Source: a virus
Taxonomy: Duplodnaviria > Heunggongvirae > Uroviricota > Caudoviricetes
Strand: one strand, 5' to 3'
Length of the DNA: 4,968 nucleotides
IMG/VR virus record: IMGVR_UViG_2711768067_000002
Span: 1-4,968 of that record
Position numbers and translations under genes: made by a program. Positions 1,929-3,744 of this stretch are shown here, one piece after another. The notes below the pieces were generated by a model, which made no database searches, was not told where the DNA came from, and worked only from the letters and a program-made list of their open reading frames with translations. Each line of letters starts with the position of its first letter. Position 1 is the first letter of the stretch.

Positions 1929-2549
1929 TTAATGCTGGGGAGTGATTTTTTTGTTGTCTGTTGGCTGGGTATTTTGTGGCGGCGCTTGCAAAGTGGAAGG
2001 CTGTTGCAAAGGTGCGTGGTCTGACTTTAAAGCTGATACCAGCCCGGGAATCGCAACTATTACAGCGATAATGACACTAAAAATGGCTAATCGTATAGAA
2101 ATACCCGACTGAACACCACTAATTGCGGTATTAACCCCTGTTATTTGTCCTTGAATTCCTTCGAATCTCCCATTAATTGCTTTTAAATCGCCAGCAGCGC
2201 TATCCATTTTTCCATCGATCTTGGACGATAGAGAGCTTATGGCCGCATTAAGTGATGCAAATTGGACATTAACGCTTTCACGAGATAGAGCCATGTCAGC
2301 CCTAATGGAAGAAGCAATAGACTCCATCTCTGCTTTATTAGCAGCTAAGCGAGCATCAAGTTCCTCTCTGCTGATCGTTCCCACTTCTTCCTCCGTTTGT
2401 GGCGGTTTTATGTAATTATTTTGCACCTTGGTGGGAGAATTATCAAATTCAGCCTCAAAATCGGAACCGCCAACAACCTTCAACCTCCGGCTTTCAGATA
2501 TGTTGGTGTCTTGCTTTCCATGATTATTTAAATTGCTGTCGTCACTCAT
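1929..2549 (-). CDS. Hypothetical 206 aa protein with a polar N-terminus, a predicted helical/coiled region, one C-terminal transmembrane helix and a Pro/Gln-rich tail; distal gene of the cassette in the rexB slot
   Basis: ATG at 2549..2547 overlaps the upstream ORF's TGA in an ATGA arrangement (translational coupling). Hydrophobic stretch RLAIFSVIIAVIVAIPGLVSAL near the C-terminus; small-residue-rich repeats (INGRFEGIQGQITGVNTAISGVQSGIS) precede it. No resemblance to RexB (144 aa, multi-pass) as recalled. Confidence 0.75.
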   Translation of the reverse strand: MSDDSNLNNHGKQDTNISESRRLKVVGGSDFEAEFDNSPTKVQNNYIKPPQTEEEVGTISREELDARLAANKAEMESIASSIRADMALSRESVNVQFASLNAAISSLSSKIDGKMDSAAGDLKAINGRFEGIQGQITGVNTAISGVQSGISIRLAIFSVIIAVIVAIPGLVSALKSDHAPLQQPSTLQAPPQNTQPTDNKKITPQH

Positions 2550-2980
2550 AATAGCTCTACGGTGAAAAATGATTCATTTTTATGAAGTTCATTTTTAGGG
2601 TCTTCATTATCTTGCAATCTCCCTATAACACTATACAGCCCTTTAGCTGGGACCCTAATTTCTTTCAATGTTACTATTACCTGTCCGCCAACCCCTGTTT
2701 CAAAATGGCTATCTTTCGTATCGATGAAAAGTGAAACTGATTCCGAAGAGCCGTCAGGGAATTGAATTTCCTCACCTTTTTTTATAATTAGGTGCGCGGG
2801 GATTACCATAATACCCAAATTATATCTTGAATTTGGTTTCAACCCGATCATACCAACCCTGAAATCAATTGATAGCCGCGCAGGAAATTCATTGCATGTA
2901 AAATTAAGCGTCGGTTGGTTGGGTTCTTCGCTGCTATCAAATGGGGTTATAAAAGATATTCTTTCTAAATTAAGTGCCAT
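2546..2980 (-). CDS. Hypothetical ~144 aa soluble protein; proximal gene of the cassette in the rexA slot
   Basis: Preferred start is ATG at 2980..2978 with AGGAG 5 nt upstream (minus strand AGGAGAATTTATG), giving MALNLERISFITPFDSS.... The ORF-track start (GTG 3034 / ATG 3031 overlapping the cI stop) lacks a convincing SD but is not excluded. No transmembrane segment, no recognisable catalytic motif, no resemblance to RexA (279 aa) as recalled. Confidence 0.7.
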   Translation of the reverse strand: MALNLERISFITPFDSSEEPNQPTLNFTCNEFPARLSIDFRVGMIGLKPNSRYNLGIMVIPAHLIIKKGEEIQFPDGSSESVSLFIDTKDSHFETGVGGQVIVTLKEIRVPAKGLYSVIGRLQDNEDPKNELHKNESFFTVELL

Positions 2981-3030
2981 AAATTCTCCTGCATCGCTGT
3001 ATGCTCTACGAGCATCTCGGCGACTTATCA

Positions 3031-3744
3031 TCACCCAAACGTCTCTTCAGGCCACTGACTAGCGATAACTTTCCCCACAACGGAACAACTCTCATTGCAT
3101 GGGATCATTGGGTATTGTGGGTTTAGTGGTTGTAGGAACACCTGACCGCTATCCCTGATCAGTTTCTTGAAGGTAAACTCGTCACCACCAAGTCTGGCTA
3201 TGCAGAAATCACCAGGCTCAACAGTCTGCTCAGGGTCAACAAGAATTAACATCCCGTCAGGAAAGCTTGGCTTGTAGCCTGTTGGTGCGGTCATGGAATT
3301 ACCTTCAACCTCAAGCCAGAATGCAGAGCCACTGGCTTTTTTAGTTGTGCTTACCCATTTCTCCGCATCACTTTTGGTAAAGGTTCTAAGCTCAGGCGAG
3401 AACATCCCGGCCTGAACATGAGAAAAAACAGGGTACTCATACTCACTTCTAAGTGACGGCTGCATACTAACCGCTTCATACATCTCGTAGATTTCTCTGG
3501 CGATTGAAGGGCTAAATTCTTCAACGCTAACGTTGAGAATTTTTGCAAGCAATGCGGCGTTATAAGCATTTAATGCATTGATACCATTAAATAAAGCACC
3601 AACGCCTGACTGCCCCATCCCCATCTTGTCTGCGACAGATTCCTGAGATAAGCCAAGTTCATTTTTCTTTTTTTCATAAATAGCTTTAAGGCGACGTGCG
3701 TCCTCAAGCTGCTCTTGTGTTAACGGTTTCTTTTTTGCGCTCAT
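3031..3744 (-). CDS. cI: CI repressor (237 aa), lambda-type, with a few substitutions
   Basis: Protein [54 protein letters not shown]...[22 protein letters not shown] contains the lambda CI helix-turn-helix and the C-terminal autocleavage domain. The start codon abuts pRM (leaderless arrangement). About 6 differences from lambda CI as recalled (for example S3A, K70N). Confidence 0.95.

Follow-up and report, generated by a model that had tools for sequence, protein, structure and literature searches.

We describe two adjacent genes, here called A and B, which lie directly downstream of the repressor gene cI in a lambdoid prophage. The DNA analysed is a stretch of 4,968 nucleotides (nt), positions 1 to 4,968 of the virus record IMGVR_UViG_2711768067_000002; “the window” below means this whole stretch, which is the immunity region of a prophage with lambda immunity. 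With a probability of about 0.5, A and B form a two-protein module expressed in the lysogen, in which A would be the cognate binding or sensing subunit of the membrane effector B, and which would serve phage exclusion or abortive infection. We favour this reading because the pair occupies the rexAB slot within the repressor operon, a cytoplasmic protein is followed by a membrane one, upstream partners of B are swapped between loci, and B is occasionally inactivated; the anti-phage role itself is read from this position and architecture.

The genes themselves are not new (they correspond to hypothetical proteins c105 and c104 of phage HK542 and to PHROGs 5893 and 5820). What is new is the resolved start of A, its fold, its strict pairing with B, the linkage of the pair to repressors across genera, and the pattern of partner swapping.

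Position of the pair in the repressor operon

The minus strand of the window carries cI, two open reading frames (ORFs) of unknown function (A and B), a terminator, pL/oL and N; cro, cII and the beginning of O lie on the plus strand. The repressor gene (3031..3744, minus strand; HTH_3 and Peptidase_S24 domains, near-identical to lambda cI) is the first gene of the pRM/pRE operon, which also includes A and B. It is followed by gene A (2546..2980, minus strand, comparison-supported start; 144 amino acids (aa)), gene B (1929..2549, minus strand; 206 aa) and, directly after the B stop codon, a t_imm-like intrinsic terminator (1912..1927, minus strand; the GC hairpin CCGGC...GCCGG, then TTTTT). The order cI, A, B, terminator is not interrupted by a promoter or terminator; in particular, neither a promoter-like nor a terminator-like site was found between cI and A on this strand. 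Homology to lambda stops at window position 3030, one base beyond the cI stop codon, and the two post-cI genes of lambda, rexA and rexB, are replaced here by A and B. We presume that A and B are made in the lysogen, because they would be transcribed with cI from pRM/pRE.

Positions 1900-3100 are 98.7% identical at the nucleotide level to phages HK542 and HK244, in which the same two ORFs (HK542 c105/c104 and HK244 04/05) were deposited as hypothetical proteins between cI and Timm. These genes do not differ structurally from those of the window: their neighbours are identical and A is likewise annotated with 144 aa; the records give no function. The HK542 GenBank record labels the terminator adjacent to B as Timm; pRM, the oR operators and the oL operators are annotated there as well.

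In about 18 of the 22 distinct contexts, the gene immediately preceding the pair encodes a prophage repressor. At least ten kinds of repressor are involved: lambda cI, several other S24 repressors (212-253 aa) and short helix-turn-helix repressors (125-172 aa). Both genes occur in 51 of the 5,426 complete E. coli genomes, in each case as a single chromosomal copy. The interval between cI and N is a mosaic hotspot, occupied by rexAB in lambda and by bstA in BTP1-like phages (PMC8585504). In one viral contig (L059:1502-1984), an S24 repressor and a partner-B pair are separated by an additional ORF (141-160 aa) whose N-terminal segment is hydrophobic; we take it as a further sign that the slot accumulates inserts.

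A gene in the post-cI slot can modulate the genetic switch, as RexA is reported to bias the lambda switch toward lytic growth (PMC11077077). By analogy with this second role of RexA, A, which is in the rexA position immediately after cI, might act on CI, Cro or DNA as a regulator of the lysogeny-lysis switch or of induction, with B as its tether. We consider this barely plausible: the same A/B pair stands behind many unrelated repressors with different operators, and the predicted Ig-like (immunoglobulin-like) sandwich of A lacks DNA-binding features.

Pairing and exchange of partners

All A homologues examined, down to 26-27% identity to A (Erwinia, Photorhabdus), precede a partner with a coiled coil and a C-terminal transmembrane (TM) helix; the overlap between the two genes is 4 nt in most pairs examined. 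In the window the A stop codon (2548-2546) overlaps the B start codon (ATG, 2549-2547) as ATGA. The original prediction of translational coupling between A and a membrane protein is borne out by this overlap with the 206-aa B, which has one C-terminal hydrophobic segment.

The B family is wider than the A family. The conserved core of B begins with SREEL, includes the TM helix and ends in a periplasmic PIIIQVP, and the first about 55 residues fall into discrete classes, each of which goes with its own type of upstream partner. With A-type partners, the N-terminus of B carries L(K/R)V(V/I)GG(S/T)xF(E/D)AxF(D/E)N(S/D). This LKVVGGSDFEAEFDNS-type motif is present whenever the upstream partner is of the A type, even at 38% A identity, and it is kept in L003 although the C-terminal half of B differs there. 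In the window the variable N-terminal region of B (residues 1-57; 2379..2549, minus strand) carries LKVVGGSDFEAEFDNS and is a candidate docking region for A.

The second class of B goes with a 112-120-aa partner bearing a CxxC...CxxC zinc ribbon, further classes with partners of 92-101 aa, and another class with a 149-aa Salmonella protein. The non-A partners (loci L052-L055 (2480-2842), L057-L065, L013:3683-3982, L015:3695-3988 and L016:3547-3996) matched no family in Pfam or PHROG and are unrelated in sequence both to A and to each other. The class II partner is frameshifted in L052/L053. We do not claim the 149-aa Salmonella partner as A-like, as hhalign aligned only its C-terminal hairpin (probability 9.8%).

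The correspondence between the N-terminal class of B and the type of its partner is our strongest indirect evidence, and we infer from it that the upstream protein and the B N-terminus work together. Accepting this, A would be a specificity, sensing or regulatory subunit that works physically with the N-terminus of B. The proposal that A is the sensor or regulator of the membrane protein, made originally from gene order, fits the strict pairing and with the co-variation of the B N-terminus and partner type. A broader reading can be put forward only tentatively, namely that of a modular prophage defence family, located in the repressor operon across Enterobacterales and consisting of the effector B and interchangeable upstream partners. 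The class-specific N-terminal peptide would then wire B to different cytoplasmic sensors, each for a different phage cue. If this is true, A would be the first standalone Ig-like phage sensor of such a kind. The constant membrane effector with swapped cytoplasmic subunits, matched to its variable N-terminal peptide, offers a simple system for studying the exchange of defence specificity.

Protein B

B matches PHROG 5820 (unknown function) with E 2.7e-76, residues 1-201 against positions 1-199 of the 200-position profile. Its homologues form 27 clusters across Enterobacterales; a scan of genome contigs with B gave one locus only. The only Pfam match, Baculo_PEP_C, is below threshold (20.8 bits against the cut-off of 38) and probably reflects coiled-coil composition.

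In the AlphaFold2 (AF2) model of B, residues 1-60 and the Pro/Gln-rich tail are disordered; between them lie a helix (61-139) and a TM helix (150-174), which are separated by a glycine-rich break. The long coiled coil has heptad-spaced glycines. The hydropathy maximum of 2.71 falls at residues 156-174, within the single hydrophobic segment (residues 152-174). Hydropathy and the model together place the C-terminal TM helix at about residues 152-174 (2028..2096, minus strand). Because B has no signal peptide and its single TM helix is C-terminal, it is most simply regarded as a tail-anchored inner-membrane protein with N-in/C-out topology and the bulk of the chain in the cytoplasm. The 32-residue C-terminal tail (residues 175-206, window 1929-2027) is Pro/Gln-rich and presumably periplasmic. 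Most B homologues have a conserved QP(I/V)IIQVP followed by Pro/Gln-rich or (AP)n tails, which recall TonB-like rigid spacers; B of the window has QPSTLQAPP in this place, and its tail is atypical for the family.

The function might be assigned to this tail. In the manner of P22 SieA, T4 Imm or HK97 gp15, a proline-rich periplasmic tail could block the entry of phage DNA, so that the exclusion of superinfecting phages would be non-abortive and A would only stabilise or position B. Prophage superinfection exclusion proteins are typically small inner-membrane proteins; B is membrane-anchored, the gene order suggests its expression in the lysogen from the repressor operon, and the PIIIQVP and Pro/Ala-Pro-rich tails of the family resemble rigid spacers. 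However, about 150 of the 206 residues of B and the whole of A are predicted to be cytoplasmic; the periplasmic tail is short and in the window is the least conserved part of B (QPSTLQAPP for PIIIQVP). Swappable cytoplasmic partners also suggest sensing inside the cell over blocking from the outside. For these reasons we hold an entry block to be unlikely, though it deserves consideration.

B is disrupted in several genomes. An IS1 element is found in B of three complete E. coli genomes (among them CFSAN064035, L099:1459-2598), which is a count of genomes and not of independent events; B is cut to about 137 residues, before the TM anchor, and A is intact. In one genome of Erwinia aphidicola, an A8 run became A7 through a one-base deletion, and the B-like gene is frameshifted (L021 compared to L020, about 4560-4590); this could be decay or a slippage-prone tract. 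The disruptions would fit a costly effector.

The recurrent inactivation of B with A left intact could also be expected of a toxin-antitoxin (TA)-like addiction or maintenance module, in which B is a membrane toxin neutralised by A via its N-terminus and the prophage is thereby stabilised. The ATGA-coupled arrangement and the match between the upstream gene and the variable region of the downstream one agree with this explanation. Nevertheless, addiction brings no obvious benefit inside the repressor operon of functional phages (HK542 is plaque-forming), and a comparison of A and B with the TA families in Pfam, NCBIfam and PADLOC revealed no match; we find the explanation improbable. It should be noted that a TA function and an abortive-infection function are not mutually exclusive.

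Protein A and its fold

Judging from sequence comparison, A is a real gene under strong purifying selection and not a chance ORF. Its homologues are found at 22-79% identity; against those at 38-79% identity, the proportion of synonymous differences (pS) is 0.78-0.83, i.e., saturated, and that of nonsynonymous differences (pN) is 0.11-0.45. No family match to A was found in Pfam (E up to 1), NCBIfam or PADLOC. A does match PHROG 5893 with E 5.5e-50, residues 21-161 of the 162-aa ORF (see below) against positions 1-136 of the 140-position profile; 5893 and 5881, both of unknown function, are its only PHROG matches. Thus, the statement in the original prediction that A has no recognisable motif stands for Pfam, NCBIfam and PADLOC, but the protein is not without a family.

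The AF2 model of A, built from a 20-sequence family alignment, has pLDDT 83.6, pTM 0.76 and eight beta-strands. The predicted fold is of the Ig-like (E-set) type, for which we looked for a two-sheet sandwich of 7-9 strands with Ig-like structural neighbours. Foldseek retrieved RhoGDI and ML-type lipid binders (TM-score 0.42-0.55, E 1.8e-4 to 1e-3), and the best fold matches in the viral library are uncharacterised standalone phage proteins of about 135-142 aa. A sequence search of PDB with the A family profile gave only noise, with a pilin Ig domain as the best match (E 0.01). An exhaustive hidden Markov model search with A gave weak repeated matches within the He_PIG/Big_9 Ig repeats of giant surface proteins; we consider these to be generic Ig-repeat matches and have dropped an adhesin origin of A. 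No signal peptide was found in A. The protein was described originally as soluble and free of enzymatic and nucleotide-binding motifs; this agrees with our analysis, and the structure prediction and neighbour search adds the Ig-like beta-sandwich. With good confidence, A is predicted to be a cytoplasmic Ig-like beta-sandwich lacking a catalytic motif, and we take it for a small binding module and not an enzyme.

Many prophage genes expressed in the lysogen are fitness or virulence morons, and cytoplasmic sandwiches that bind glycans or lipids (the carbohydrate-binding domain of Wzt, RhoGDI/ML) are similar in fold to A. The pair might accordingly be thought to provide lysogenic conversion unrelated to phages, i.e., an envelope, stress or host-interaction trait. 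Copies without a repressor are known from Photorhabdus: in Photorhabdus luminescens (L018/L019:4001-4952), distant A-like/B-like pairs adjoin the gene tssM (IcmF) of the type VI secretion system and remnants of tail-fibre and tail-assembly genes. The B-like partner there matches PHROG 3556 and, weakly, PHROG 937 “hemolysin” (E 4.9e-5). We attach little probability to conversion. The structural similarities are weak (TM-score about 0.5), the placement next to a repressor is kept across genera and immunity types in a slot known for exclusion systems, and partner swapping is typical of arms-race modules.

Start codon of gene A

The minus-strand ORF that contains gene A extends over 2546-3034 (162 aa) and opens with GTG (3034-3032) followed by ATG (3031-3029). 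Both codons overlap the cI stop codon TGA (3033-3031; motif GG-GTG-ATG / TGATG), so the original description of this overlap and its coordinates are correct. Further downstream, the Shine-Dalgarno sequence AGGAG, read from the sequence at 2990-2986 (2986..2990, minus strand), is separated by the 5-nt spacer AATTT from the internal ATG (2980-2978), which yields 144 aa. The in-frame extension upstream of this ATG (2981..3034, minus strand) comprises 18 codons.

The original prediction found only the AGGAG before ATG 2980 convincing as a ribosome-binding site and considered the start of A ambiguous. Comparison of homologues shows that the internal ATG is the start used family-wide. The A homologues have 140-153 aa (Enterobacter, Citrobacter, Klebsiella, Phytobacter, Cedecea, Erwinia, Serratia, Photorhabdus); they all begin at the equivalent of ATG 2980 and align from the internal Met, with the conserved N-terminus M-x(2-4)-ERISF. 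The profile of PHROG 5893 begins at the same Met of the 162-aa ORF. The HK542 junction is identical to that of the window, so the start can be resolved only through more distant contexts. The equivalent of ATG 2980 is conserved over 13 genomic contexts. An in-frame stop codon lies 0-18 nt upstream of it in 10 of 11 non-lambda contexts; in the eleventh (L003), the frame is open for 96 nt upstream, yet there is no start codon in it. Purine-rich motifs similar to Shine-Dalgarno sequences occur at the equivalent place elsewhere: GGAGG in L007/L042 and GGTGGAAAAG in L003. The upstream start is offered only by lambda-derived junctions and is absent from all non-lambda contexts.

Two E. coli variants differ at 2 of 432 nt in the core of A but at 6 of 18 nt at the beginning of the extension, where the amino acid changes include I to D and S to G. 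In the predicted RNA fold, the upstream GUG/AUG lies in a hairpin, and AGGAG and AUG 2980 are unpaired; the effect is weak (z = -2.1).

The commonest E. coli variant carries an additional gene between the repressor and A; it encodes a DUF3024 protein of 113 aa (Pfam E 2.4e-31; L023:1827-2168 on an IMG/VR contig; L100:2623-2964). This insert is flanked on both sides by direct repeats GAAGAGACGTTTGG(G/A)TGA, which are the last codons of cI. Both copies of the repeat are kept in E. coli 2015C-4498 (L100) although the repressor there is an unrelated LexA-type protein. As the repeats persist beside such a repressor, the coupled start appears to travel with the cassette as a boundary sequence. On this evidence, the cI-end sequence behaves as a portable module-boundary sequence, and the 18-codon extension is a relic of the cI 3' end that probably serves as an untranslated leader. 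Neither the window nor most contexts outside E. coli contain the DUF3024 gene; we dropped it as a part of the system and treat it as an optional insert.

Direct coupling of A to cI, which the original prediction allowed for in case the upstream start is used, is not inherent in the gene: an upstream start is available only at loci where the cI 3'-end relic abuts A, and the relic persists even without a preceding cI gene. One may still suppose that the main product is an extended A of 162 (or 161) aa made by termination-reinitiation at TGATG and stoichiometrically locked to CI. The frame is open, TGATG is a classic coupling motif, and a weak purine-rich GAAGAG is present 9-12 nt upstream; moreover, gene callers pick 162 aa in many assemblies. 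This proposal is hard to reconcile with the ideal spacing of AGGAG before ATG 2980, with the predicted base-pairing of the upstream start, and with an origin of the extension that confines it to cI-derived junctions, where its first codons diverge radically while A itself is more than 99% conserved; we judge it to be of low probability. The conserved product is, very probably, the 144-aa protein. The inconsistent annotation of A (in RefSeq, 144 aa for the lambda context but 162 aa for the DUF3024 context; 162 aa is also a frequent choice of metagenome callers) is settled in the sense that the 144-aa form is conserved and the additional codons derive from a mobile boundary sequence of the cI end.

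Other features of the window

A 167-aa ORF (682-1185, plus strand; RefSeq WP_001278766, PHROG 1244 of unknown function) lies in convergent orientation to N, the 3' end of which it overlaps. The encoded protein has a coiled coil in its middle part and a C-terminal CxxC...CxxC zinc ribbon, and weakly matches the PADLOC candidate PDC-M53B (E 0.012); HK542 has different ORFs in this place. We regard this ORF as a possible second accessory gene, lying antisense to the pL operon. The part of O at the right end of the window contains four iteron-like repeats of the TCCCTCAAAAC type (4840-4940), which is the ordinary replication origin of the lambda type.

Discussion

The mechanism that we propose is as follows. 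The accessory cassette A+B, in place of rexA-rexB, would be transcribed with cI from pRM/pRE up to t_imm. A would be translated from ATG 2980 by means of its own AGGAG, and B in step with A owing to the ATGA overlap. A would bind the class-specific N-terminal region of B and act as the specificity, sensing or restraining subunit of this membrane effector. Superinfection would then lead to exclusion or abortive infection at the membrane, so that the pair would be a functional analogue of RexA/RexB built of unrelated proteins. The swapping of partners in such modules is what is expected of arms-race genes.

Several observations weigh against this reading. No experiment or paper in the literature and supplements searched ties A or B to phage resistance; neither protein matched PADLOC-DB v2.0 (E up to 1), and neither is similar to the RexA and RexB families in Pfam and PHROGs. 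The DefensePredictor supplements do not contain the accessions of A and B either. A has generic fold neighbours (identity below 15%, TM-score about 0.5), which indicate no particular ligand. The model of B is of low confidence (pLDDT 57.7), and a single TM helix is not in itself a channel. Some members of the family lie outside immunity regions, namely those of Photorhabdus, L057 and a degraded Yersinia prophage. The disruptions of B could merely reflect prophage decay. Finally, a minor 162-aa isoform of A could still arise by termination-reinitiation at TGATG. With these points taken into account, we believe that the pair is a credible candidate, and one easily tested, for a new prophage-encoded exclusion module of two components.

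Comparison with known systems

The beta-sandwich topology and size of A are shared with the carbohydrate-binding domain of Wzt, RhoGDI, ML lipid binders, adhesin Ig repeats and the AGS-C Ig-like domain of Pycsar/CBASS. Several of the standalone Ig-like/E-set proteins compared are cytoplasmic modules that bind a ligand or partner rather than catalyse. The cytoplasmic coiled coil and single C-terminal TM helix of B are likewise found in the XhlA-type “hemolysin” and in ElaB/YqjD-type proteins, but B of the window matches neither of these families. XhlA acts in lysis cassettes and not in repressor operons.

With respect to position, the closest cases are BstA and RexAB. The gene for BstA, known from prophage BTP1, follows the repressor gene in diverse Gram-negative prophages and presumably uses the repressor promoter (PMC8585504). 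This equal synteny supports the use of the slot for defence expressed in the lysogen (PMC8585504). Unlike the pair described here, BstA is a single DNA-associated protein with a cognate DNA element, aba; a membrane component is lacking, and neither A nor B is homologous to BstA.

The slot of RexA/RexB is identical to that of A/B: directly after cI, in the pRM/pRE operon, before t_imm and pL-N. The layout is also shared, with the cytoplasmic protein first and the membrane protein second. RexAB excludes T4 rII and other phages by depolarising the membrane. The proteins differ. RexB is polytopic, with four TM helices, whereas the only TM helix of B is C-terminal and is preceded by a long cytoplasmic coiled coil. 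RexA, a DNA-binding dimer, has 279 aa (PMC11077077), and A is a predicted all-beta Ig-like sandwich of 144 aa. We regard A and B as standing in the place of RexAB, possibly acting in the same manner, and not as members of the RexAB family. If they are an exclusion system, they would be a natural counterpart to RexAB, easy to test, with the same promoter context and completely different proteins, available in the laboratory-used phage HK542, and could reveal what the rexAB slot selects for.

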